A stretch of DNA of 63,752 nucleotides, counting the filler, from Reclinomonas americana ATCC 50394 (taxonomy: Eukaryota), in assembly GCA_048213135.1 (NCBI GenBank). It is 13 parts of 7 records of this genome, joined end to end, with 100 filler letters (N's around TTAATTAATTAA, not from the genome) between each part and the next. Parts side by side here need not be neighbours in the genome. Positions count along the whole stretch, not along the records: positions 43,047 to 53,172 come from PS015804.1; 12 more parts are not named here. The stretch is one strand, 5' to 3'. The position numbers and the translations under genes are program-made. Shown piece by piece: positions 39 to 63,630 of this stretch. The notes below the pieces were generated by a model. That model did not search any database and had not been told where the DNA came from. It worked only from the letters and a program-made list of their open reading frames with translations. Numbering within the stretch: the stretch's first letter is position 1; each line of letters opens with the position of its first letter.

Positions 39-77
39 CTGTGCTTCGTCCTGCACGCTGTCCTTTTTGCATTTGAA

Positions 78-1654
78 ATGTTCCTGCTTCTGTCGAGAGC
101 ATCGTCGCTTTCGTCGCGTTTTGGTGCGGTTTCGTCGCGTTTTGGTGCTGCTTTGGTCGCCGCCACGAGAGGCTTCGCAGTGGCGGCGACTGATGCGAAG
201 ACGAACAGCAGTGATGTTTCGTACACTGAGCGATCACTGGTCTCCCGTGTCTCTCTCTCTCATTCACTGACAACATGCACTGTCTTCTCACTCATTCTCA
301 CACTCTTTTCAAACACAGCGTTTGCTTCACTGATTGCAATCAGTCGTTCTTTAATCACTCATCGTTCTTCACCCTTCCTTCCGCACGCACTGTTTGGCAC
401 TCACCCCTGCACTGTTGCACTCATCCTATATCCCTTCCCCTCACTCCCTTCCAACTCTTTCACACAGTCTTCAATCTCAGCACTGTTTGCAATCACTCGG
501 CCTTTACTCTTTGCACTGTTGCCCTCATCCATTCCTTCCACTGTCAAACGCAGCCTTCATTCTCTGCAATCATCGTTCCGACGCTTTCAAATAGTCTTCA
601 CTCACCACATTTCTTCCATCCCCGTTCCCTTCCACTCACTGACTCACTCACTCGTTCAAACGCAGCCTTTGCTCTTTGCACTGGTGCCCTCATCCATTCC
701 TTCATTTGTTTGCCTACTCCCTTCCACTCATTCACTCTTTCAAACACAGTCTTCAGTCTCCCAATCTCCCAACTTTATGCAGTCATCCTTTCCCTTCCAC
801 TCACTCACTCCCTCGTTCAAACGCAGCCTTTGCTCTTTGCACTGGTGCCCTCATCCATTCTTCATTTGTTTGCCTACTCCCGTCCACTCATTCACTCTTT
901 CAAACACAGTCTTCAATCTCCCAATCTCCCTTCTTTATGCAGTCATCCTTTCCCTTCCGCTCACTCACCATGTCAAACACAGCCTTTACTCGTTGCACTG
1001 TTGCCCGCATCCATTCCTTCCACTGTCAAATACAGCCTTCACTCTCTCCACTGTTTCACTCACTCCCTTCCACTCACTCACTCTTTCCCTTTCCCTTCTT
1101 CCCTTTCCCTTCCCCCCTTTCCCCCTTCATCCCCCTCCCAGGCCACCCCCCGTCGCGCCATCAACATTGGCGACTACGCCGAGCTGCGCCGCACATACAC
1201 CGAGGAGGACCTCGTGCGCTTCGCCGACCTGTCGCTGGACACCAACCCGGCGCACTTCGACGACGAGTTTGCGCGACAGCTGATGCCCGCGGCGCCGTTC
1301 AAGAGTCGCCTCGTGCACGGCGTGCTCACTCTGTCGCTGGTGTCGGGCGTGCTGGGGAGGTGCTTGCCCGGCGCCGGCGCGATTCTCATGAACATGGACA
1401 TCAAGTTCTCGCGACCCGTCTACCTGAATGAGCAGGTGGTGGCGCGCGCCGAGGTCGCCAGCATTCGCGACGATAAGAAGCTGGTGACCATGGCGGTGTC
1501 GGCACGCAATCCGCAGTCGGAGGTGGTGCTGTCGGGCACCGTCCTCGTCAAGTATCTGTGGTTGCATGAGGCGGTGCCGCCAGTGGCCGCGTCGACGGAG
1601 CTCGGCAGCAGCGCGCAGCAGCGTTCTGACCCGGCCATCAAGTGGGAGAAGTAG
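78..1654 (+). CDS. MaoC-like hot-dog-fold dehydratase (HTD2 / (R)-enoyl-CoA hydratase-like) with probable mitochondrial targeting peptide; 2 exons (78-215, 1142-1654)
   Basis: Exon 2 has FADLSLDTNPAHFD and LVHGVLTLSLVSGVLG, the MaoC hydratase motifs. Exon 1 is an Arg/Ser/Ala-rich N-terminus. The intron GAT|GTTTCGT...CCCAG|GCC keeps frame. Confidence 0.85.
440..1060. repeat. Degenerate ~165-bp tandem repeat inside the MaoC intron
   Basis: The block tcgttcaaacgcagcctttgctctttgcactggtgccctcatccattc recurs at ~653 and ~814, with weaker copies at ~500-560 and ~970-1040. Confidence 0.8.
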
Positions 1655-1802
1655 CAGGCCCAGATAAGTGAGTGGGTGAATACGTAAAAAAAAAACGGCG
1701 CAGCCTCAACAAGTACAATGCGGGTGGTTGGAGGGTGGAGAATGGTAAAGAAAGGGAAAGCAGTTGCAGTGTGAAAGGAAAAGAGAGGTGGGAAAGTGGT
1801 TT

Positions 1803-3885
1803 TTAGCGGCTGCCGCTGGCGCCGGCGACCTGCACCTGGTTGCGCTCGCACAGCATCCTGAGCAGTGGGGGAAGGGGTGAGAGAATGATTGGGAACAAAG
1901 AGAGGTGTGAGGGAGAGGCGACGCAACAGTGTGGCGATGAAGCACACAATCATCTTGGTGTTGACCTGTCAGACGCAAACGAATGTAAGAAACGAGAACA
2001 GGAAAGGTGTTTGCCATTGCCGCGACTCACCTCCACCAAGTCCTCCCACCTGCAAGATGCATAGTCGGTGAGCAATTCGATCAAGAAACAGGAGGAGCAG
2101 AAAAGCTACGAGGCCAAGAACAAGCACCGGTACTGTTTCCCTCGTAAACACTCGCTGTTGCTTGCTTTCTCTCTCCGAGCACTCACTCACTCCCTCTTTC
2201 TCTCTCCCACTCACTCCCTCATTCTCTGCGCACGAATGAGTGCATGGTCAAGAACCACGACAAAGGTCTTCTCCGCCTTGACGCGGCCAATCGGTGCATC
2301 CTCACTCTTTCTCTCTGTCTCGGACTTTGTCGAGAACCTTAAAGAGCTTCTACGATCTGCTTGTAGAAGCAGTCATTCTGTGTCTCAGCTTGTTCTCCAT
2401 CTCTCTTGTGCACTCACGCGCGTCAAGTCTGGCGGAGTTCTGAGCCTCTCGATCCAAAGCGCACACTGCGAGATGGAGTGGAGGCCACACAACAGCCTTT
2501 CCATTTTTCTCTTCCCGCCCTCCCTCTCCCTCTCCCTCTCTCTCTCTTTCCTCTTCCTCTCCCTCTCCTTCGCCCTCTCCCTCTCCCTCTCCCTCTCCCT
2601 CTCCCTCTCCCTCTCCCTCTCCCTCTCCCTCTCCCTCTCCCTCTCCCTCTCCCTCTCCTTCCCTCTCCCTCTTCACTCCCAAACGCAACAGGCAGAAAAG
2701 CGTGCCACCAATGGCACGAGCCACCGACAAGGCGTACTTGGCGTTGAGCTCCTTCTCCTCGGCTGTCCCTCCAGATGAGTCACGAGAAAAAATTACAGAA
2801 ACTCCTATTCCTCCAATCACGCACCACTGACACCCGGAGTCACCATGTCGTAATTGACGACACCTGGCCGCACGGCATTACACAGATCGAGAAGGAAGGC
2901 GCCGGTGGAGATGGTCGGGTCGTTGGTGTCGCTGATCGACGACGACTTGCCGGAGGCGGCGACCTTGTTGTTGGCCCACGCCACCAGCTCCTTGTCGGTG
3001 ATGTCGCGACCGCCTTGCGACAACTTGCGAATGGTGGCCACCAAGTTGTAGCGCATCATTTGCCATATCAGAGCTGAAGCAACGATGAACGACAACCACA
3101 AGGGTAGTATCAACAGAGCAGCAGATCCAGCTTACCGAGAATGAGCTTCTTGTTCTTCTGCACAATGTCAGTGCCGTCGATGCCGACCAACGAGAACTTG
3201 TGCTGATGACCAATGGCCACAACGTAGTTGCAGTTCTCGCCTTTTTGGTACACGTTTCGCGGGTTCATCTTGGCCTTCTTCCAGTCCACACAGCCAGCGT
3301 CAATCACATCCCAGGTCTGCCGAAAAAACAAAGTGGAATGATTGAAAAAGATAAGCACAGGCAACGCGGCAAGAGAACGACGCGCACCTGCAGCAGCGCA
3401 ATGCCATCGTTGACGTCCTCGAACAGGTTGTTGACGTCGACGCCCAAACTGCGCAGCCAGAAGCGGAAGGCTACAGAGGCGGCAAGGTGAGCAACATTGT
3501 GCACGACATCGCACTCCCCTCCGCATCTGCCACTCACCGCGCTCCTCACGCGTGCCCTCCTCGTCGAACGCCATCAGCGCATTGACGCCCTGCTTCTCGG
3601 CGTCGCTCAGCTTCGCCATCGCACCGTCGGTCTTGTTGAAGAGATCGGCGATGAACGCAAGGTTGAGGCGACCGAAACCCTGTTGGTGAGGGAGCGTGAT
3701 GAGCTTTGGCCATGCACTGCCGCTGCATACTCGAACGCAACTCCCAAAATCGACTGCGGGCTGATGAACTTGGAGCAGTGGACCTTCTCGCTCTCAATGT
3801 CCACGGACTTGGCGCGCTCCTCCAACGACGGGTCGCTGAGGATGTCCAGCGATGTGCGGCCGCCGGTGGCGATGTGCAGGAGGTG
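1803..3885 (-). CDS. Fimbrin/plastin, C-terminal calponin-homology domains; 5' part not resolved (assembly gap)
   Basis: Spliced translation gives PQSILG-GFGRLNLAFIADLF, EGTREERAFRFWLRSLG, ENCNYVVAIG, LILALIWQMMRY, EEKELNAKYALSVARAIG and LWEDLVEVNTKMIVCFIATLM, matching the fimbrin actin-binding domains. Stop TAA at 1803-1805. Confidence 0.93.
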
Positions 3886-4131
3886 CTGTGGTTGGGGGAA
3901 AGGAGGGTGAGGAGGGGAAAAAGGGAAAGGGAGAGCGCGAGGGATATAAGATCGGCAAAGTCGCTTTTCACTATTTGCACAATCCGAGTGTGCGAGGAGA
4001 GGGCAGATGAAAAGAGAGGTGGAGGGAGGGAAAGATTGCATGAGGAGACAGGAGAGGATGTGAAAGACAGGGGAGGTGTGCGGCAAAGGTGCATGCTGCC
4101 AGAGAAGAGAAAGCAAAGGCGTGTGGGGCAG

Positions 4132-4168
<37 letters not shown>

Positions 4169-4289
4169 GGAGATGCTGAGAGTGTCGNNNNNNNNNNNNN
4201 NNNNNNNNNNNNNNNNNNNNNNNNNNNNNNNTTAATTAATTAANNNNNNNNNNNNNNNNNNNNNNNNNNNNNNNNNNNNNNNNNNNNAA

Positions 4290-20233
<15,944 letters not shown>

Positions 20234-24242: not shown

Positions 24243-26222
24243 ATGCGCGCACTGCTTGTGGCCAGCGCGCAGCTTGCGCTCCTGCTCGCGCTCTCTCCAC
24301 TGGTGATTGCACTGGTGATTGTACCGGCGGCGGTGGTGTTTGCGCTGGGAGATGCGTGGCGTGCGGTGCGACAAGGGCGATGGAGGTGGTGGCAGCAACA
24401 GCAAAAGGAGAAGAAGAGTGGGAATGGGGGAGAGTATGATGCGGTGTTGATCACGGGAGCGACGGGAGGCATTGGTGAGGAGAATGGGAGGAGAATGCAT
24501 GGAGAATGGGGGGAAAAGGGGAGGAGAATGGTAGGAGAACAAGAGCTTGCCTGCGAGCTGGAGAATGCAACAGGAAGCAGAGAATCTGCAGAATGTAAGA
24601 GACTGAGTGGCGCAACAAGGTGGTGGCAGCATAAGGAGAAGAAGAGTGGAGGAGAGTATAATGCGGTGTTGATTACGGGAGCGACTGAGGAAAGGGGGAG
24701 GAGAATGCATGATGAATGGGAGGGAAAAGGGGATGAAAATGCATGCTAAACGCAAGGAGAACAAGAAGAGAGATGCTTGCTTGAGGTGTACAGTGGGGAA
24801 AGAGGTACAGCTGGACGTACAGTGCATACAGAAAGAGGAGAGCAAGAATCTGCAGAGTGTAAGAGCAGAACTTTTGAGAAGTGAAACAAGGGCGATGGAG
24901 GTGGTGGCAACAGCAACAAAAGGAGAAGAAGAGTGGGAATGGAGGAGAGTATGATGCGGTGTTGATTACGGGAGCGACGGGAGGCATTGGTGAGGGGAAT
25001 GGGAGGAGAATGTGGGGAAAAGGGGAGGAGAATGGTAGGAGAACAAGAAGTGAGAAGAGCTTGCTTGTGAGAGGTACGCGGGCTGGAGAATGCAACAGGA
25101 AGCAGAATCTGCAGAGTGAGAGAAGATCTTCTGAGTGTCCATGGCCAACAGAAGGACGAGAACAGCGAAGATGGCGGTGTTGATTACGGGAGCATTGAGG
25201 AAAGGGGTAGGAGAAAGCATGAAGAATGGGAGCTGAATGCTGGTGAGAAAGAGAGCCACAGCCGGAGACCACTATCATGCAAGAATGGCATGTGTAAGCA
25301 CCTGCGAAGATCAGTGGAATGTAGCAGGAACGAGAGTGCTGCGGGAGGCGCAATACTCACGCCGGAAGTTACAATTCCTTTCTGACAACTTTCTCTCCTC
25401 AAAAGGCGAGGCCCTTGCCCTGGAATACGCCGCCGCCGGCGTGTTTCTGGCGCTGACGGGGCGCGACGAGTCGCGTTTGGAGACGGTGGCGCAGGCGTGT
25501 CGCGATAAGGGAGCGACGGTGGTGACGCGCACTCTGGATGTGACGTCGCGCGCCGACATGGAGCAGTGGGTGCGTGACGTCGATGCGCAGCGCAAGCTGA
25601 AGCTGGTGATCGCCAATGCCGGAGTGTCGGCGAGTACGCTGGGAGCGGGAGTGGCGCCCGAGGAGGCCACCAACGCCATCTGGGAGACCAATGTGCTCGG
25701 CTGCGTCAACACCATCATGCCGGTGCTGCCGCGCATGGAGGCCGACGGGTGTGGTCACTTGGTGGCTGTGTCGTCGCTGGCCTCGTACTTCCCCACCGAC
25801 ATGTCGCCGGCGTATGCGGCCAGCAAGGCCGGCGTGCGCATGCTGTTCGAGTGCATGCGACTCAAGCACCGCGGCCGCGTCAACTTTTCCGTGGTGTGCC
25901 CCGGCTTCGTGCGCACGAAAATGTCCGAGTCACTGAAACTGGTGCGTGCCGCAGCATCCATCTGCTCCCATCGCCTCACTCCTCATTCGCTCCGCAGAAG
26001 TCGATGCCGTTCGAGATGACACCGGCCGACGCCGCCATCCGCATCCGTCGCGGCATCGAGGCCAACGAGGCCGTGATTGCATTCCCGTGGCTGGCGCACT
26101 TTGTGGTGTGGACGCTCAGCACGCTGCCGCCGGCCATTCAAGATGCGCTGCACGCTAGTGTGCGCACCGTGATGTCGTGCCTGAATAGATTCCGCAAGGC
26201 GCCGAAGCAGCGCGATAGTTGA
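24243..26222 (+). CDS. Classical short-chain dehydrogenase/reductase with N-terminal membrane anchor; 3 exons
   Basis: Splicing ATT G|GTGAGG (24474) to AAAAG|GC (25406) gives VLITGATGGIGEALALEYA. Also IANAGV, catalytic YAASKA, VVCPGFVRT and a hydrophobic N-terminus. Confidence 0.9.
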
Positions 26223-46381: not shown

Positions 46382-47251
46382 TCACACCAAGCTCCTCAAC
46401 GCCGACACCCACGCCGCCTTATCCTTTGGTGTGTGACACTCGATCCAGTACTCTCGCCCCGTCGTCGAATCCGTAATCACCATCAGCAACGGGCGATCCT
46501 CCACCGGGTCCGGCTGCACCGCGCGCCCGCCCGCCACATTGATCACACCCTTGGGGCGGATCGCGGGCGACTCGGCCTCCTCGCGGCACTTGAAGTACGA
46601 CACACTCTTGGCGTCGCGATCGAGCACAAACCAACGTGTCTTCCAGTTGCGTACAATGTTGCCGCGCTTGGTCATTGCCGTGCTCAGGTACCGAGGCAGA
46701 GAGACAGGCTCTGCTGCTGCTGTTGCAGAGGAGCGTGGAGAGACGACAGCAGAGGCGCGAGGAGACACAGAAGCGGTCTCGATTGGTGGTTGTGGTGGAG
46801 GAGGAGGTGGCGGAGGAATGATCAGATCGGGCAGGCGTTGAAGGTGATTGATGGGTGCGAGGCCGCGTTGGCCTTGCGAGTTCTCGACGAGCCACCAGCC
46901 TGGTTTATCGGTGAGTGAGTGAGTGAGTGAGTGAGTGAGTGAGTGAGGTGTGTGTGTGTGCGCACCTGAAGCTTCATCTGCGATGGAAACGATGCGCAGT
47001 CGCTCGTTCTGCTCGAAAGCGAGTTCGCGTGTGGAGTCGGTGGTTACGGAGCGCGTGTAGAGTGCCACGGCGACGCCTGCGATCGATGCGTGTGAGAGTG
47101 AGTGAGTGAGTGAGTGGAATGGGATGTGATGAGAGGCGAGAGAGTGACTGACCGTGCGGGTCGGCTGGTGCCTGTGTGCGAGAAGTGAGTGAGCGTGTGT
47201 GATAGAGAGAGGGGGGGGGGCGATGAACGCAACTCTCTCGGCGAGTGACAT
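46382..47251 (-). CDS. SH3 + proline-rich linker + PH domain adaptor protein; 4 exons
   Basis: AVALY..RELAFEQNERLRIV..GWWLVENSQGQRGLAPINHLQ (SH3). MTKRGNIVRNWKTRWFVL..PKGVINV..REYWIECHTPKDKAAWVSAL (PH). Confidence 0.9.
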   Translation of the reverse strand: MSLAERVAFIAPPPLSITHAHSLLAHRHQPTRTVSHSLASHHIPFHSLTHSLSHASIAGVAVALYTRSVTTDSTRELAFEQNERLRIVSIADEASGAHTHTPHSLTHSLTHSLTDKPGWWLVENSQGQRGLAPINHLQRLPDLIIPPPPPPPPQPPIETASVSPRASAVVSPRSSATAAAEPVSLPRYLSTAMTKRGNIVRNWKTRWFVLDRDAKSVSYFKCREEAESPAIRPKGVINVAGGRAVQPDPVEDRPLLMVITDSTTGREYWIECHTPKDKAAWVSALRSLV

Positions 47252-47619
47252 GAATGAGTGCGAATGCAATGTCCTCTTGTTCAATATATTGTGTGGTATC
47301 GACGTTCGCACGCCACGAACGACTTTATGTGCCTGCCTCACGCAAGTAGTACTGTGGAGGTCGGGCTTCAGAAACGGCGTCTTTTTGTTGAGACTCGGAA
47401 CACTGATTCGAGTCAAAACGATCGACGTCGAAGCAGTCTCTCGCTGCGTGTGTCGTGCTGCCCCTGGCTCTCAGCAACGCACCTATCTCACGTGCCCCGC
47501 GGCACGAAGAAGTCACACACAATCCCCTCCCCACAATCATAATGGCCATCGCCTTGTACAGATAAACTCCACCTCGCCACAGCCTAGCGTCATCTTCCCA
47601 CGCTCACTGTATCGTCGCA

Positions 47620-50600
47620 TCACGACTCCTCCACGTGCGACTGCGACCGCTTGCATCCTTTGGCGTTGATGTCGGTCGAACCGCAGCACTCCCACGTAAA
47701 TGTCTGCGTGACGGTCGTGAGCAACACACCGCTCCCTCCTCCAGCTCGTATATGCGACAGACCGCCTGCACGCAGAAGTAAGTCTGGCGCGAACGACACA
47801 TGCAGTCGACAATAACACACGCAACTTTTCCGCGTGCCAACTGTCCTCAGCGGCGAAGAGTAAGCACACACGGAACAAACACCAGAAAGCATTAGGAAGC
47901 GGCGACTGACCTCTTGTTCCAACTGCACAGGGAGGGAGATAAAACGGTGAGCAATCACGAAGCACCAAGAGCGATGAACGGAACACGCGACTCACAAACT
48001 GTGCACCAGAAACCGCACCACCGCCAATGAAGAAAGCAGTGAGGAAGGAAGGCGCGCGTAGACAGTAGCACATCGCAAACTGCCAAAAACTCACCGCCTG
48101 TGAACACACTTTGTGAGTGAGAATCGAATACAGACACCAACAGCACGAGTTCCATGCAGACGAACCCGCTGTTCCATGGACAGTCGCACAAGCGATTCGA
48201 TCACAAGGTGAGCTCTGTTTGCACGGACACGGCGCATGGGGGAGATGCAGCGTACAAACCATCTGCCACACCAAATGAGTACAGATGGGTGTTGAAGGAC
48301 GAGAGGGAGTGACACGCACCACAGAAAACTGTTGTCGCCGTGCCACCAGAGGGCAAGAAAGTTAGCAATCGAGACAGAGCTACGAACGCATGTTACAAGG
48401 CCTTCGACGCACCGCCTGTACACACGATTAGAGGTGCGACGTGACGCAGCAAGAGCACACGATAATAAGAGTCACGCAACAGTCTGGAGGTAGATGGTGG
48501 GCAAGTGGAGGAATGGCACACAAAGTAAGCACCAACAGCACAAGCGTTCACAGCTACATGCACGCAACAGTCTGTGTGAACAAGCAGAAGTGAGGGTACA
48601 GTAAGAGAGGAGGAGTTCATGCGCACTTTGCACTTACCCCCTGTTCCGATTCGTCACGCGATGCACAAATAGAAAGCAATTTTGTGAGACAACGATGAGA
48701 CGCAATGAATCGTTACCAACGCACTCCCTGCGGTGAGCGCGAGAAGCACACGTCAGAGGCACATCAGCCGACATGTGCATGTACATGCAAGACGCGCCTT
48801 CTGCGTGAGGCAATAGAATCATCAGAAACACGAGCATGCAAACCATTTCACACCCACGTAAGAAACGCAACAGTATCATCCTCCGTGGACTGCCGCCGTG
48901 AGCGAAAACAACAAGACGGTCAACAATTCGTATGAGCTGTAACGCAAGCCAGCATCAACTCACCCACTGTCGTCCGCGGATTGCACACAGTCACAAAAAA
49001 ACTCGTGAGACACACAGTGCCTTTGCGGGGACACACGCCGACTCCCAAGACTCACCACCTGCACGACTCACGAGCAATGAGATCGAGCAAGCGCAAGCTG
49101 CTGGAAACAGCCAAACAAACTCACCCACTGAGTGCCGACAAGTGCAGATTGTGCATGACAAATGGAGTGAGTTGGTGAGAGAGACACAGATTGCAACCTT
49201 CATCGACAACGCACCGTCTGCGTCCGACAGAAGAAATCGATAAACAGCAGACTGTGAGTGACCAGCAAGTCAATGTATCCACGCTGGAATCACGTTACTC
49301 ACCGCCTGTCAACAAGTATATTCACACGATAAGAAACAAGAAAACTCTGAGTCACGCAAACACACGGAGGCAACGTCGACGGACTTACCGCCTGTATGCA
49401 TTCCGAGATGCGACACACACGTGGGTGAGTGAGATGAAGCAATGAATGTGACAATAAGCACTCTAACGCACCCACTACGCGGGAGTAATCAATAGCACGT
49501 GCGCAATAGAAATGAGCCATGGCATTGCATAATGAGAGAGACGACAACGCACCCCCTGCAATGCAGCGAAGGAAATAAGAGCATGTTGGCAACCCAAACA
49601 CGAACAAGAGACTCACCGCAAACGCCTACATGGGTGGCACGCGAGAGCGATGAGAAGGTGTAAGAGAGAGGACGCAAGCAGGTGCTGATGTGAAGCGGAT
49701 GAATCTCACCGACTGCGGATTCAGGAGGGGAAGAGAGAAGCAAAACATGAGGACTTTCAAGATTGACGCCACGGATACTGAACGACGCCACTTACCGTCT
49801 GCACATGATTCCACAGCGCACGCATCGCAACACATGAGTATGGACACGGTTGTGACAACAGAGCTGCTGAACAAAACTCACCAACTGCGCAACGTAATGA
49901 AACAAATGAGAGACGAATGGGAGAGACAACAGGCAAGCAACAATCAGTAAACGCACCCGCTGATACGACAAGCAGACAGGCGAGCAATAAATATGAGCAA
50001 ATGGAGAAATGCAAATCATACGCAGGTCACTCGCAACACTCACCCCCTGCAGTCGAGACGCAAGGCCAGCGCACGCAGAAGGATGAACATGTGAGTCTGT
50101 ATGCAAAGCTAATCGTACTCCGAGAAACACTCACGTCCTGCAATTCAACTGTGAGCATGATGAAGGACTGCATGTGGGTGCAAGGCATTGATTGACACTC
50201 ACCGACTGCGAGAGGTCAGACAAGCAGGCACAACAACGACAATCGAGCAAAGTGTCAGCGTCGCAAGCGGATGGAACGAACGACATGCCCACTCACCAGC
50301 TGCACGCAGCCAGGCAGTGATTGTCGCACAGTGAACAAAAGTGAGTTCCCCAAAGCAGCCCATGCATGAGAGACATTGACAGACCTCCTGCAGACATCAA
50401 AGTGTATCAGGGTGATGCACACTATAATGGCCAAACAAACAGGCACACTCACCCCGTATTCCTGTTGGTTGGCGCCACGGCAAGGAAAAGAACAATGTGA
50501 GCGTAACTACGAGACGAAAGCCAGTCAGCAAGAAATGTCGCCACACACCCACTGCACAGAGAGAGCAAGGCACCATTTCCACATGAGAAACGATGGCTCA

Positions 50601-52300
50601 AAAGCAATGACACACCCACCCCGTCTTACCTCGGTATGATGCATGCATGGTTGCTTCTCCGCGTACAACTCGCCGCATCTCGCACACGTCGGCGGCGGCG
50701 GCTACACAAATAATACTAAGCACATGATACACAACGTTGGTGTTCCCAGCGATTGATGCCGCAACTGGTGCTGCCGTTGGCGTGGCCGTCACCGGTGCCG
50801 CCGCCGCAGGTGGTACGGCGGTCACTGTGCCTGCCGAGGCCAGTCCACCGACAATGGACGCCGCCACAGCGTGTGACGCCAGCGCGCCCTGTGTGTACAT
50901 GGAGGGAGAGAGATTGACGAGAGGGTAAAGAGGGATTGTGATGGAAATCGACAAACCTCAATGGCACGCTGTCCTCGCGCTACTGGAGCACCGCTGCCGA
51001 CACTCAGAGCGGCAATCTGGGTGGAGAAGTGGTCAGGTCCAAGAGAACTGCAGAAAAGGAAGGTGCCTGACTGCAGCGTACCGCTTTCTCACGAAGTTGT
51101 CGCTCATCTTGCAGCGCCTTCTCAAACTGCGCACGGAGGTGTCAGAAGCATACACACAAGATGTGAAGCAAGACATGTCATTCACCTCGCGCCGGAAACG
51201 ATTCATGCGATCCGACAGCTCCATAAACCGCTCCTCCAGCACCCGCCGCTCGGCCTCGTTCTCGTCGGCTCGTCGCATGGCCTGGAGTGGACATCGACAA
51301 TGAATGGACGCATTACACACAAAAATCGGTGCCGACTGTCACACGCTCGCACCTGATTCAATATCTGTACCATCAACAAGAAAAGAGTCAACAGAAAAAT
51401 CAAGGACGAGGTATGTGCGCCAGCAACGCAACGTAGCGAAACGCCGGCTCCGCGTGCACCACATGGCACTCTTGTTCGTGCGCCGGCTTGTCCGCACCAA
51501 GTCCCTCCCACTCGCAGCCAATGTCCCACGCGCGGCACTTTTGCGGTAACCGCGGACACGTCACATCTGCAGCACATGATGAGCTCAACGAGAGCACACC
51601 CCTGATAAGAATGAAACATACCGACGTGCCGCTGAATCTCGCCGCGTGCAAGCAAGGCCCCACAGCCGCGAGAACAGGGGACATCACGGCATTGCGCCTC
51701 GCGGTGTGCGGTCACGAAGCGGAGGGTGCCGGTGGCGCCACAACCCTGCGGGCACACATACATGCACTCGTCCCAGGCGTGGCGATTGTGAAAGTCGCGA
51801 ATGCACTGGACACAAAGGGGCAGGATGTGAGCGATGACGACACGAGCTGCTATCCCTCAACCAAACGTACCAAGCGTTTCTTGCAGCGCCGGCATTCAAT
51901 CTGCCAAATACACAAACATCAGTCTCGTCGTGCCTCCGCGGAAGAGCACACAACCAACCTCGAGATTCTCGTAGTTGCGCGCATTGAAAGCCGCCGGCAT
52001 CTGCACCGAACTGATCGAGGTCAGACTGCCGTCGCCGCACCAGTTGCGCCCCTCCTCCGTCAAATGCGAACTGCAACGAAACACATGAGCGAGGGCCAGA
52101 AGCCAGCACCGTGAAGCCAGAAAAACGAACCGACAGAGAACGTGCTCTCCCGCGGCACAAAAGCACCACTCACGGGAGCACAAGTCCTGCGTGGTGAGGA
52201 TTAGAAACGCATATCAGACCTGCTTCTGTACGTCCGCCAGCCGCTGTCTGCAGATATCGATCTCCGTGTATCTCTTTCATTCTCTCTCTCTCTCCCTTCT

Positions 52301-52352
<52 letters not shown>

Positions 52353-52650
52353 CCACCCCCACTCACCCTGCACACGCAGCACTCATAACGACGCGCCACT
52401 GGTCGCTCCTCTGCAATCACATCGTCGATCTCCACGAGTGGCGGCTCGAGACGATCGCTCGCTGGTGGAAGTGGTGGTGGAGGTGGTGGTGCCTGCGATT
52501 GCCCCACAGCACCACCAGCAGGTGCTCCTGTGCGAGACAGAGAAGAAGGAGAGAGAGGGTGAGGAGAGAGATCGCGTTCCATCGCAAAACAGGTTGTGCT
52601 CATCACTGCTTTCACTGCTTTCTTCGTGACACTCATCACTGCTGCGCTCA

Positions 52651-52692
<42 letters not shown>

Positions 52693-52814
52693 GCCCTTCG
52701 TCACTGCCTACATCACAGCACTCGCTCTCTCCCATTGCTCTCACTCATCGATCACTCTCACACACCTGGCGTCATCATACTCATCGCCGCCGCCTCATAG
52801 TCCTCAAACCCCAT
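47620..52814 (-). CDS. TRAF-like protein (RING-like finger, TRAF-type zinc fingers, coiled coil) with a C-terminal Cys/His domain built from a micro-exon array; predicted 49 exons, 458 aa if all are included
   Basis: Conventional exons 52766-52814, 52367-52527, 52131-52186, 51959-52070, 51871-51900, 51622-51805, 51433-51566, 51353-51364, 51186-51281, 51082-51126, 50957-51016, 50766-50888 and 50630-50701, then 35 micro-exons, then 47620-47703, all join in one open frame. Motifs: YECCVCRDL..C..GEHVLCRSH, CPQGCG..H..C..VPCSRGCG..IQRHV..C..CRAWDIGCEWEG..HEQEC, and a coiled coil. Start codon is the best candidate, not proven. Confidence 0.82.
47763..50551 (-). other. Array of 35 consecutive phase-0 micro-exons (29 x 3 nt, 3 x 9 nt, 1 x 12, 1 x 15, 1 x 18 nt)
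   Basis: Minus-strand YAG|NNN|GT(G/A)(A/C)GT-type units (plus strand actcac-NNN-ctg, acgcac-NNN-ctg, acttac-NNN-ctg) recur about every 60-100 nt without a break. Confidence 0.9.
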
Positions 52815-53272
52815 GTGCCCTATCTCTGACAAAAACGCAAAGGAAACACTGTTGACAAATGCATTGTGTCCCGTCGTCCACTGATCGCATTCTCATTGTA
52901 AAGAGCCGACTCAGAGCAAATGGACTCCTCAAACCTTGTGCAAGTGCGTCAGTGAGAGAGAGAGAGACTGATAACAACACTGATATCTCATCATGCATCG
53001 CTCTTCTTCTTCCTTCTTCTTCTTCTTCTCCTTCTTCTTTCTCTCCTTCTTCTTCTTCTTCTTCTTTCTCTCCTTCTTCTTTCTCTCGTTCTCCTTCTCC
53101 TTCTTCTTCTTCTTCTTCTTCTTCTTCTTCTTCTTTCTCTCGTTCTTCTTCTTCTTCTTCTTCTTCTTCTTCNNNNNNNNNNNNNNNNNNNNNNNNNNNN
53201 NNNNNNNNNNNNNNNNTTAATTAATTAANNNNNNNNNNNNNNNNNNNNNNNNNNNNNNNNNNNNNNNNNNNN

Positions 53273-53327
<55 letters not shown>

Positions 53328-57900: not shown

Positions 57901-58269
57901 GGAGAGGGAGCTCTCATGTCAAATTGCGGGAGGTGGCGAGAATGCACGAAAGACACCACCGCAGTCGAGGAATACGACAACGAGAGAGGAAGAGACAGGA
58001 CTCGTGCCAGAATTGCGGGAGACGGCAAGAATGAATACACGAAAGCACTGCTGCGACAGTGGCAACAACGCCGAATAGTGGTCGGTGAAAGCACATGGAA
58101 GAGTGATGAGAATGCATGTGAAACCCGTCGAGGCGCACAACAGCAAACAGACTCAGAAGACATAAGCAACTTAACAGAGTAGTGGCAGGATAACAAGAGC
58201 AAAGTTAGCAGCACGACAGAGAAGAAGGAACAGGGGTGGTTGCACAAGACTACAGTGACGCATGCCACC

Positions 58270-59368
58270 CTCCCTTCTCCTCCACGTTACCTCTCGGAAG
58301 TTCTTGATCTGATCAATGTGCGCCCGCCAGTCCTTGGGGTCGAGTGCCACACGCAGCGTCAGCTGCGGTACCGCGTGCTCCAACTCCAATTGCCAGCCCT
58401 CAGCGGTCATTCCGGCAATACCGGCGGCGCCAGCGGGTACGGACGACGCACCAGCACCGGTTCCCGACGGCCCTACGCCACTGCCGTCCCCTGCACCGCC
58501 AATGCCCATCACTTTTGCCGCGCCCGCTCCCTTTTTCTTGTTGGCTCCCACGCCCGAACTGCTGGCACCGCCACCGCTGACGCCGCCCACATAGTAACTC
58601 ATGTCCTCGCCGTCGTCGGAGCTGCTCTCCACATCGTCAGCGATCTCGTTGCCGTATTGCCCGTCGGCCGAGTCCTCCACCTCATCCTCGGGCGCCACCT
58701 CGTCCTCGGCAATCGGATCGTCCTCCGGGTGCGGGTAGATCGGGCTCTCGAACGGAATGGGGATCTTGCGGAAGATGAGGTCGCACAGGTTGTTCAGCAC
58801 GGCGCACACCTCCGGTCCGTTGCCGTTGCGCATTTTTTGGTTGGGGAAGTCGGGTGACCAGCCGATTTCGCGGAGCTCGTTGTCTGGGCAGGGGGGGAGG
58901 GTGAGAAGGGGGAATCAGGGCAAAGGAGGACAGGAGGAAAGAGTTGCGTGTGCATAAGCTATCCGAGCTTGTCGACATTCCAAGACGAAGCAACTCTGAG
59001 ATTGGCGTGATGTGGCAATCCCCATTCCTCGATCCCTCCCCTCTCCCACTTCCACGCCCATGTACGCAACAGATTCGAGCGCACACGTCGCTCGCAGTCT
59101 CCAACTGATCGGGCAAGTCATACGGTCGCTCCGCCAGCTGGAAGAGCCACGCTGTCAGCGTGGCAAAGTGTGAAAATTGCTCCTGCGGTTTGGGCGACGG
59201 CATGGCAAAGTAGGTGCGCGCAAACGCCTTGATGCCACTGTGCACAGTCGCGCGTGAGTGACAGAGAGAGAGAGAGAAGATGGAGAAGGAGAGTGTGGTA
59301 CGCAACAATCGCTTGCAGAATTCCTGCTCGTAGCCGAGGATCTTGAGCTTCTCCAGCACGAGCTCCAT
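58270..59368 (-). CDS. IFT57: Intraflagellar transport protein 57 (partial; probable first exon near 59900-59963, 3' exons lost in gaps)
   Basis: MELVLEKLKILGYEQEFC, RTYFAMPSPKPQEQFSHFATLTAWL, DFPNQKMRNGNGPEVCAVLNNLCD and WQLELEHAVPQL..DPKDWRAHIDQ. Confidence 0.92.
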
Positions 59369-59592
59369 GGTGTTGAAGGGTGTTACATCGGGCTGTGGGA
59401 AGGGAGAGAGGAAGTGAGAAAAAGGGAGAAGAGGAAGGAGAAAGAGCTGAAGAAGATGGATAGAGAGAGAGAGAGAGATAGAGTGCGTNNNNNNNNNNNN
59501 NNNNNNNNNNNNNNNNNNNNNNNNNNNNNNNNTTAATTAATTAANNNNNNNNNNNNNNNNNNNNNNNNNNNNNNNNNNNNNNNNNNNNACTA

Positions 59593-62098: not shown

Positions 62099-63630
62099 CC
62101 GGCTCGCGCTCTCGGGTACGATCGACCGTGTGTGTTGTCTCCGGACCCAGCACCAGGTACTTTTCCTTGTGCTGTCGCACGTGCACATGTGTGAGCACGG
62201 AACGACATCGATCAGAGATCCTACTGCTCACACACCAGCAGAATGTGCGCTGTCAGGCGGTCAATCATGGCCACGAGATTCTTGCGCAGGCGGTGAGCCT
62301 GGCGCTCCAGCGTGCACAGCAGTGGCACCGAGTGCGGCTTGAAGCGGAATGCACTGCGCCAGATGGGCTCACGTGGACCCTCGTCCTTTTCGCGACGACC
62401 CGAGCGGCTGTGCGAAGGAGACAAAAGTGATTGAGAAGGAATAAGTGGCGAGTGACAAAGCACCGACAAAGAAAAAACGCACCGCACGCCACTCGGTCCC
62501 TCATTCGCATCGTCACCCTCACTGCGATGCGTCGGCTCGCGACTGCTGTCACCACCGGCGCCATCGGAGCGTGGCGACCGATGCTCTCCATCCTCCCCGT
62601 CGTGCTCCTCGTCATCGTCGAGGCCCGCATCGTCGTCCTCCTCGTCGTCGTCGTCCATCAGCGACTCCGGGTCGACCTGCACCAAATAGTGCTCCTCCAT
62701 GATTTCGTGCTTCTCCACCGACAGGCGCTGAATCGTGCTCTCCAGGTCGCCGACGGTCTCCACCAGCCACTCGCAGTCGTTCAGCACACTCTCCGGCTTG
62801 GTGACCTTGAGCTGCGACGACACCTCGTCCCACTTGGTGACAAAGGCGTTGACGGCGATCACGTTCTCCGAGTCGGGAACGCGGTCGCAGGTGAAGTGGC
62901 GGTCGTCCTGGGTAAAGGGAGAAGGATACGGAGGAAAGGGGAGGGGTGAGAGAGAGATGAGAGAAGACGGGCGTGTGCTGGCAGTGGAAGATAAGCGCGG
63001 ATGTATGACGAAGAGATGAACACACTACGCTTAGACGACGGGATACGGAAATCGAAAGCAGGCGACAAGGAGATCGAGGATGCGATGTGAGAAGACGAGA
63101 CATGCATGCTACAGAGTGAAAAACAAGGGTAGAAGCAGGTGAGAAGGAGATAAAGAAACGAGAATCGTGAACAAGTGACGAGGAAAAAGCAAGCGAGCGA
63201 TTCAAGAAGTGAGCAAGGAATGATGGAAGCGGTGGGATGGATGCTGCTAGCGAAAGAGAAAGCTCATCGTAACCGAGCAATCGCAGATGAGATGATGGAG
63301 AAAGGAAACACGATAGAGGTGATGCGCAGGGCAACCAGGAAACAAGCCAAGCAGAAGAGGGATGTATGCAACAGCGCAAGTGACGATGAGGCAACAACGA
63401 AGATAGCAGCGTGCAACGGGCCAGTAAACAATACAAAAGACGACGAAGGAACTGAAGGAAGGAGCCACCTGCTTGCGTGTCACACACACCTCTCGACGCA
63501 TCGCCATCTCCCGTCGCGCACGGCTGAGCCAGTACTGTCGCTCAACCAACTGCTCCTCGTAGTCAAGGCATTCCTTGTTGATGCGCTCGAGCTCTTCCGC
63601 GCGCTTCTCGGCCTCGGCGGCGAGACGGGC
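62099..63630 (-). CDS. Probable axonemal dynein intermediate chain DNAI7/CASC1 (IC97-like), N-terminal part
   Basis: Charged coiled coil ARLAAEAEKRAEELER, then HFTCDRVPDSENVIAVNAFVTKW, VLNDCEW and MIDRLTAHILL, resembling the CASC1 N-terminal domain as I recall it. Confidence 0.5.

Follow-up and report, generated by a model that had tools for sequence, protein, structure and literature searches.

Tens of consecutive exons of a single codon each are found in the NACHT-ANK (nank) genes of Tuber melanosporum (Iotti et al. 2012, Fungal Biol 116:261, as cited in PMC4986451, PMC3689799, PMC10197012 and PMC13449251), and according to the citing passages these arrays were proposed to diversify the sensing part of the protein. 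In the literature on micro-exon and intron arrays, this 2012 truffle NLR report was the only description of such an array that could be traced. Here we analyzed a 63,752-nt stretch of DNA of Reclinomonas americana ATCC 50394 (assembly GCA_048213135.1), hereafter the window, whose minus strand carries at 47620-52814 a gene for a predicted TRAF-type zinc-finger protein, which is apparently interrupted near its 3' end by 35 consecutive micro-exons. We consider it probable, at roughly 0.6, that this is a real array of codon-sized micro-exons of the same kind as in the T. melanosporum nank genes, situated in another host gene and another lineage. The truffle precedent therefore makes the structure a known, if obscure, kind, proposed for the very purpose that a first-pass annotation of this DNA had guessed, namely recognition by a variable loop.

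As in the truffle genes, in so far as the citing passages describe them, the micro-exons follow one another in a row (35 here, 29 of them of 3 nt), every subset of them keeps the frame, and the host is a signalling or immune-type gene. Unlike the truffle genes of those passages, the host is a TRAF-type zinc-finger protein rather than an NLR and the array interrupts a zinc-binding motif; moreover, the organism encodes IFT57 and is not a truffle-like fungus. The likeness is drawn from the citing passages and covers exon length and number, frame and the kind of host gene. Runs of symmetric micro-exons are also known from the micro-exon genes (MEGs) of Schistosoma, which encode secreted proteins with exons of 3-81 bp and introns of up to 5 kb, as described in PMC10526429. 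The present gene shares such runs with the MEGs, but its array exons are mostly of 3 nt, its array introns measure 59-96 nt and they build one insert in a protein of intracellular signalling type. Alternative use of the Schistosoma MEG micro-exons, from which variants of the protein arise, is said to have been described by DeMarco et al. in 2010. The recursive splicing ratchet points of long introns in Drosophila and vertebrates, at which an AG|GT marks a zero-length exon that leaves nothing in the mRNA, resemble the present units in that an acceptor is followed by a donor within a long non-coding stretch that may be removed stepwise. They differ in that 3-18 nt separate acceptor and donor in 35/35 units of the window, and these nucleotides would stay in the mRNA. 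That short-intron spliceosomes can handle exons of 3 nt is seen from Coprinopsis cinerea, for which 27 long-read-supported 3-nt exons in 26 genes are given (10.1101/2024.05.10.593147); these isolated exons of 1-3 nt are single and do not form arrays.

The array occupies 47704-50629 on the minus strand, between exon 13 and the last exon, where 35 micro-exons and 36 introns are packed into 2926 nt. Twenty-nine micro-exons are 3 nt long, two are 9 nt long, and the others measure 6 (or 9), 12, 15 and 18 nt, one each; all these lengths are multiples of 3, all the micro-exons are in phase 0 and none contains a stop codon. The introns are 59-96 nt long with a mean of 77, and every one has its own donor, a pyrimidine-rich 3' part and a YAG acceptor (CAG in 34, TAG in two). 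GTGAGT is used as donor in 13 of the 36 array introns, as compared to one of the 12 ordinary donors of the gene, and is followed by GTGCGT (six), GTTGCG (four) and GTAAGT (three), while nine further types, including one GC donor, serve the remaining 10 introns. If translated, the micro-exons would add 52 residues (53 with a 9-nt micro-exon 28), among them four Trp, three Phe and one Tyr and neither Cys nor His. This composition is the one given in the first-pass annotation, whose placement of the array between the two halves of a Cys/His motif, CARC-x9-CMHH upstream and WECC-x8-GC-x5-H downstream, was likewise upheld by our exon parse.

The pattern YAG-NNN-GTRMG was matched 47 times in the window against 15.15 matches expected, a number reached in 0/100 shuffles, and 21 of its 27 minus-strand matches in the 63.7 kb fell within the 2.3 kb of 47996-50297. 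A pattern of three successive units gave three matches in the window, all within the array, and none in 100 shuffles. Outside the array the acceptor-donor pairs are scattered, and their spacer lengths fall in every residue class without preference for multiples of 3. A chance origin of the array pattern is excluded.

The intron bodies, on the other hand, have diverged completely. Pairs of array introns reached a local score of 13.97 as compared to 12.76 for shuffled ones and are thus no more alike than the shuffle, and the identity of adjacent introns was 0.52 against 0.50 shuffled. Since the introns no longer resemble one another, the array must be evolutionarily old, and there is no sign in them of ongoing diversification at the DNA level. 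An origin by tandem duplication has left no trace, as TRF found no period near 80 nt in the array and the intron pairs score at shuffle level. Despite the diverged bodies all 36 donor-acceptor pairs are intact, and from the survival of all 72 splice sites, while the introns drifted to shuffle level, we infer that each unit is spliced. It is thus likely, judging from the sequence, that the array is spliced and translated. We also considered that the introns host small RNAs (small nucleolar RNA or mirtron) and rejected it, an Rfam scan having given no match in the array. All eight sub-threshold Rfam matches are confined to the GA/CT microsatellite within intron 1 (52528-52765), where microRNA-precursor matches with at best 30.5 bits against a gathering threshold of 80 are most likely low-complexity artefacts.

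Numbered from exon 13 onwards, with all coordinates on the minus strand and a length of 3 nt unless stated, the micro-exons are situated as follows. Micro-exon 1 (50549-50551), a Trp codon, is followed by the donor GTGTGT. The donor GTGAGT follows micro-exon 2 (50453-50461, 9 nt, internal GT absent) as well as micro-exons 4 (50297-50299), 5 (50203-50205), 6 (50135-50137), 7 (50044-50046), 9 (49882-49884), 12 (49617-49625, 9 nt, acceptor TAG), 16 (49303-49305), 18 (49125-49127, Trp), 19 (49056-49058), 20 (48964-48966, Trp), 31 (48095-48097) and 32 (47996-47998, Phe). GTGCGT was found behind micro-exons 8 (49957-49959), 13 (49553-49555), 14 (49472-49474, Trp, acceptor TAG), 17 (49215-49217), 23 (48725-48727) and 27 (48413-48415), and GTAAGT behind 10 (49796-49798), 15 (49389-49391) and 24 (48638-48640). 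The weak donor GTTGCG delimits micro-exon 21 (48872-48889), whose 18 nt reach to the first GT past the acceptor, and also follows micro-exons 25 (48569-48571), 26 (48481-48483) and 34 (47826-47840, 15 nt). GTCTGT follows micro-exon 3 (50385-50387) and micro-exon 35 (47763-47765), after which comes the 59-nt last intron. Single occurrences are GTGAGA behind micro-exon 11 (49710-49712), GTTTGT behind 29 (48260-48262), GTTCGT behind 30 (48166-48168) and GTCAGT behind 33 (47911-47922, 12 nt). Micro-exon 22 (48798-48800), with the GC donor GCGCGT, is the least certain unit. Micro-exon 28 was read as 6 nt with the donor GTGGTG (48323-48328) or as 9 nt with GTGCGT (48320-48328), the frame being kept either way.

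The whole gene was modelled from frame and splice signals as 49 exons, running on the minus strand from an ATG at 52814-52812 to a TGA at 47622-47620, with 13 ordinary exons, the array and a last exon, and the frame is open from start to stop across all of them. These boundaries and the strand agree with the first-pass annotation, and its protein length of 458 residues was reproduced when micro-exon 28 was taken as 9 nt and exon 12 was shortened by 30 nt at a GTTGCG donor. Exons 1-13 encode 388 residues, in the order of a Pro-rich start, a RING-like Cys/His cluster, zinc-finger exons, a 12-nt exon, a heptad-like stretch, a linker and CARC-x9-CMHH. Exon 1 (52766-52814, 49 nt) carries the start codon. 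Exon 2 (52367-52527, 161 nt, without Pfam match) is Pro-rich and opens the RING-like Cys cluster, which continues in exon 3 (52131-52186, 56 nt, donor GTTCGT) and ends in exon 4 (51959-52070, 112 nt), where the final Cys pair is missing and Pfam gave no match. Exon 5 (51871-51900, 30 nt) precedes exon 6 (51622-51805, 184 nt), a TRAF-type zinc finger, and exon 7 (51433-51566, 134 nt, donor GTTGCG), the second zinc-finger part. Exon 8 (51353-51364) is a 12-nt micro-exon outside the array. Exon 9 (51186-51281, 96 nt), charged and heptad-like and aligned to the C-terminal part of the relative P0008, probably forms a coiled coil which would go on in exon 10 (51082-51126, 45 nt); then come exon 11 (50957-51016, 60 nt), exon 12 (50736-50888, 153 nt), an Ala/Val/Pro-rich linker, and exon 13 (50630-50701, 72 nt), which holds the half-motif CARC-x9-CMHH and gave no Pfam match on its own. 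The last exon (47620-47703), 27 codons and the stop, carries the BTK-motif-like WECC-x8-GC-x5-H.

The end of exon 12 may be set otherwise. With the end at 50736 the following intron would measure 34 nt, which is implausible, while the alternative end at 50766, at a GTTGCG donor, leaves an intron of 64 nt; ordinary short introns elsewhere in the gene measure 55-71 nt, like those of the array, and lengths of 180 and 238 nt occur in it as well. On the minus strand GTTGCG stands as an in-frame donor at 51427-51432, 50760-50765, 48866-48871, 48563-48568, 48475-48480 and 47820-47825, and by eye it also occurs near 47230, at the first exon of the downstream gene. Because it fits in frame at two ordinary exons and at the first exon of the next gene, we accepted GTTGCG as a real minor donor type. 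It pairs poorly with the standard U1 5' end and may represent a lineage-specific donor class.

Homology at the sequence level supports reading the host as a zinc-finger protein of TRAF type that lacks MATH. A search of exon 6 among 1.84 billion representatives retrieved 15 proteins at E<=0.001, the best being P0001 (E 8.1e-17, 33% identity), and PF02176 (zf-TRAF) scored above cut-off in 7/8 of those relatives that were scanned; single exons of the gene gave no direct Pfam match to it. The TRAF-type zinc fingers of the first-pass annotation are thereby borne out. The relative P0011 combines RING, TRAF fingers and coiled coil without MATH, and the MATH domain, whose absence had also been noted before, matched none of our exon pieces at E<=10. 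When the spliced model was aligned to the 15 retrieved proteins by local phmmer, the alignment spanned exon junctions, the E-values meaning little in so tiny a database. A word-index search of exon 6 against longer proteins found none, and NACHT and ANK gave no match in the exon pieces of the gene. The searched collections are without the proteins of this genome, the best relative of a short-chain dehydrogenase (SDR) exon elsewhere in the window being only 66% identical. The suggestion of a ubiquitin ligase fared less well: the RING-like cluster of exons 2-4 has atypical spacing and lacks its last ligand pair, and no RING family matched it when it was scanned in three exon pieces. The RING thus appears degenerate, and ligase activity is therefore doubtful.

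Behind the coiled coil a low-complexity linker leads to the Cys/His module, which we regard as half supported as a predicted zinc module of BTK/CHORD-like type. The last exon, which alone of the single exons gave a Pfam match, matched PF00779 (BTK motif) with E 2.2e-4 and 21.5 bits, the cut-off being 24, at profile positions 12-27 of 30, so the BTK likeness proposed earlier received some support. An Atlas look-alike of the last exon (0.85) belongs to a cluster with BTK in 13% of its members, which we treat as a lead only. As to the proposed likeness to CHORD, neither exon 13 nor the last exon matched PF04968 at E<=10, the halves being scanned singly, and the likeness would be one of spacing. 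The putative ligands of both half-motifs number eight, the CHORD count of six Cys and two His. When the window and the 120 metagenome loci described below were searched with regular expressions, the two half-motifs were present at this gene only, and a BTK-like tail was absent from the nine retrieved sequences that were read.

Arrays of similar units were also found outside this genome. Metagenome contigs were scanned with the three-unit pattern, which gave at least 120 stretches (L001-L120), some of them overlapping on one contig (e.g. L054/L055 and L061/L062), and a chain of at least eight YAG-NNN-GTNNG units was counted as an array. Among the matches listed, to which all counts here refer, 48/120 loci hold such chains, making 49-56 arrays depending on how chains are split; the chains of the remaining 72/120 are shorter, and for many of L081-L120 the flanks included were short. 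The longest chains were those of L004 (68-78 units, 46-4966, plus strand), L054 (53 units, 1982-5695, plus strand), L041 (47 units, minus strand) and L079 (40 units, 3026-6389, plus strand), and the median introns measure about 65 nt. The units are spaced by 60-100 nt, and the introns, with GTGAGT, a CTRAC-type branch motif (fungal-type) and YAG, are tandem repeats, adjacent ones being identical at 0.57-0.98. In five arrays that were measured the single codon was the most variable part of the unit, with 1.3-1.7 bits per column as compared to 0.25-0.74 in intron columns.

Triplets were counted in those 37 non-redundant arrays that had five or more distinct ones, nine non-redundant arrays with fewer being omitted, and the expected numbers were derived from position-wise composition. 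Stop triplets numbered 3/821 against 68 expected, or, when distinct triplets per array were counted, 3/383 against 31.8. Trp exceeded expectation (50 against 21.8), as did Phe (46 against 20.5), and Cys fell short of it (4 against 19.1), a Trp/Phe-rich and Cys-poor bias that is common to the metagenomic arrays and that of the window. The uniform-triplet arrays L051, L092, L099 and L013 consist of Ala, Met, Val or Arg throughout, and such arrays may be plain satellites with splice-like motifs or very young arrays.

The genes around the metagenomic arrays were examined by scanning 12 and then 39 flanking open frames for domains, and frames beyond those named here gave nothing. NPHP3_N together with NACHT scored above cut-off directly upstream of the array at L017 (1537-3024), L065 (60-1643) and L079 (1298-2896), and NPHP3_N at L061 (1650-2729), all on the plus strand. 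L054, L007, L059 and L056 showed the start of a P-loop GTPase by weak sub-threshold matches, and L080 a ubiquitin-like domain (ULD_2). The loci L054 and L059 share their array-flanking exons (56% identity over 72 aa upstream, 46% over 80 aa downstream) and differ in their triplet strings; conserved flanks and differing triplets mark the arrays as hypervariable stretches that lie inside genes. The intron consensus of these two loci is alike (about 80% by count) and better kept than the coding flanks, which could reflect an introner-like unit that is mobile, concerted evolution from which the codon is exempt, or a role of the intron RNA itself. Intron sequence families were common to different loci, as seen when L054, L046, L095 and L105 were compared with L056, L059, L033, L070, L077 and L109, and further families join L079/L065/L061/L029, L007/L016/L038/L118, L035/L050, L037/L106 and L081/L027. 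At the NACHT loci the arrays open with about 13 positionally conserved single-codon exons, after which comes a repeated part that differs between loci.

The array of the window resembles the metagenomic ones in its stop-free YAG-3 nt-GTRNG units and in lying inside a gene between exons. It differs from them in its introns, which are unrelated (0.52, shuffle level) where theirs are repeats, and in its host, a TRAF-type protein as against proteins with NACHT/NPHP3_N, GTPase or ULD_2 domains. A further parallel is offered by the WD40, ANK and TPR repeats of fungal NLRs, for which PMC10197012 and PMC13449251 describe high internal conservation with few varying coding positions, in a context of non-self recognition. 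Like them, the codon-sized arrays keep a repeated DNA unit alike and vary few coding positions. The NLR repeats, however, conserve the coding unit, whereas the codon-sized arrays conserve the intron and vary the codon, and the window array has lost the similarity of its units altogether. The preferred reading of the window array is that of an old and diverged representative of the codon-sized arrays, residing in a TRAF-type adaptor.

Several observations weigh against reading the locus as a translated array within a zinc module. Eleven of the 36 donors are non-consensus (GTTGCG, GTTTGT, GTTCGT, GTGGTG, GTCTGT, GTCAGT and GCGCGT) and one unit requires a GC donor, which leaves units 1-20 more certain than units 21-35. 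A final G is shared by 24 of the 29 three-nt exons; the codons are thus shaped by the requirements of splicing, which can account for some of the Trp (TGG) excess. The BTK match stays under the Pfam cut-off and spans only half of the profile, whose positions 1-11 are unmatched. As the insert is free of His and the nearest His pair is that of exon 13, there is no His at the distance expected for BTK before the Trp, and the zinc module would therefore need a very long loop. The last exon matched no PDB sequence, and a search for C-terminal homologues, made with a 41-aa query that included 14 residues read from intron, returned eight candidates, none of which scored. Since the introns are unrelated, recombination-based diversification is not expected to operate in this array now, unlike in the metagenomic arrays. 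Even among the latter, in four related NACHT loci, variable columns numbered 10/39 in micro-exons against 166/831 in introns (p 0.41), pointing to neither purifying nor diversifying selection.

We asked what else the locus might be. The 2.9 kb between exon 13 and the last exon could be an all-or-none intron, removed directly or stepwise, so that the protein would end in a compact BTK-like knuckle and inclusion of micro-exons would be rare noise. The two exons indeed meet in phase 0 on both sides and can be joined directly in frame, the His pair would then stand 5-6 residues before the Trp and thus nearer to the BTK profile, and the micro-exons contribute no metal ligand. Stepwise removal, however, would leave the 3-nt exons behind, as no donor is re-formed at the junctions, and unused internal sites should have decayed to shuffle level like the intron bodies. 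Nor would such an intron account for exons of 6-18 nt that are all multiples of 3 and stop-free, or for the avoidance of stops by the triplets of the metagenomic counterparts (3/821 against 68), and we hold it to be quite unlikely.

A rather different possibility is that the array is spliced and translated and yet a neutral passenger, a tolerated expansion of a surface loop by selfish or slippage-driven amplification of intron plus codon, now frozen and without function in recognition or diversity. The fully diverged introns, which show that the array is no longer dynamic, fit this well, as does the constraint of splicing on the codons (24/29 ending in G). So do the metagenomic intron families, which are shared by several loci and better kept than the coding flanks, as those of a spreading element would be, and those metagenomic arrays that are uniform runs of Ala, Met, Val or Arg. 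Against it, the long-term retention of 72 splice sites implies selection against loss of frame, which alone is no proof of loop function, and the association of arrays with NACHT, GTPase and ubiquitin-like-domain genes, together with the truffle case, points to fast-evolving recognition proteins; we judge a purely passive array unlikely. It is very improbable that the pattern arose by chance or is an assembly artefact or a dead gene: the window comes from a gapped draft assembly and contains 4797 N, and the searched collections contain no protein of this genome, but the array itself is free of N and of repeats liable to mislead an assembler, shuffles never produced the pattern, and the frame is open through 49 exons.

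If the locus is a real array of codon-sized micro-exons, its introns would be removed singly by intron definition. With the donor only 3 nt past the acceptor, the two cannot be bound at once and removal is therefore probably sequential; as no donor is re-formed at the junctions, the codons would stay in the mRNA if the sites are used. The retained micro-exons would add about 52 Trp/Phe-rich residues free of Cys and His, placed between the CARC-x9-CMHH and the BTK-like WECC-x8-GC-x5-H halves of a putative C-terminal zinc module, in a protein otherwise made of a degenerate RING-like cluster, TRAF-type zinc fingers and a predicted coiled coil. More speculatively, skipping of any subset of micro-exons would keep the frame and give introns of about 150-250 nt, lengths already found in the gene itself. 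As every skipped subset keeps the frame, the array could yield many loop variants, and a loop repertoire by exon skipping would be mechanistically easy. By analogy, a variable recognition loop is plausible, and the protein may have a role in defence or recognition, or as an adaptor, as was proposed for the truffle NLR arrays.

It is tempting to go further and to regard codon-sized exon arrays as a widespread, old eukaryotic module that builds and varies recognition loops residue by residue, an extension that we put forward tentatively and consider doubtful. The short intron would then be a repeated, recombining and separately spliceable spacer and the single codons the only variable translated part. 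Such a module would have been joined independently to scaffolds of innate-immunity type, in fungi to NACHT NTPases, to GTPases and to ubiquitin-like-domain proteins, and in a flagellated protist to a TRAF-type adaptor. In this adaptor a zinc knuckle might clamp both ends of the loop, and splicing choice might let one gene make a repertoire of Trp-rich loops.

Further proteins encoded in the window are IFT57, an SH3-PH protein and a MaoC dehydratase. In the IFT57 gene (58174-59488, minus strand) two pieces of exon passed the Pfam cut-off of 40, with 81 and 54.7 bits, and a Casc1_N-like piece at 62224-63024 (minus strand) stayed below cut-off. IFT genes are not known from Dikarya. The presence of IFT57 therefore indicates that the organism builds cilia or flagella and is not a truffle-like fungus. 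The protein of the next gene downstream of the array gene (46385-47470, minus strand) has an SH3 domain, interrupted in the gene by an intron, and at its C terminus a PH domain (PF00169, 51.2 bits). A gene with a BTK-like motif beside an SH3-PH gene recalls the parts of a Tec kinase, but a stop and about 370 nt part the two, which are separate genes. The SDR exon lies at 25402-25965 (plus strand); its best relative is on a 1.7-kb contig, the others are about 50% identical and the named ones alphaproteobacterial, and the gene may be of bacterial origin. The gaps at 53171-53273 and other runs of N are flanked by CT, GA and TCT microsatellites, and in one gap the linker TTAATTAATTAA stands between two N runs, a mark of artificial contig joining. 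Gene order across such gaps is therefore not trustworthy.

Thirty-five mostly one-codon exons in a row stand at the limit of what a spliceosome is assumed to manage, and they are invisible to ordinary gene finders. The locus extends a rare gene structure to another gene family, with a TRAF-type gene as host, and to another lineage, that of a flagellated organism. Taken together with the 48/120 metagenome loci listed, it suggests that the structure is much commoner than the literature implies, and the position of several arrays behind NACHT or GTPase domains suggests that codon-sized arrays go with fast-evolving recognition genes. How 3-nt exons are defined 35 times in succession is a mechanistic question that the array raises, just as the repeated arrays raise the question of why it is the intron that is conserved and the codon that varies. 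Were the micro-exons used combinatorially, a single gene could command a very large repertoire of loops, and the array would then represent a somatic-free analogue of receptor diversification.

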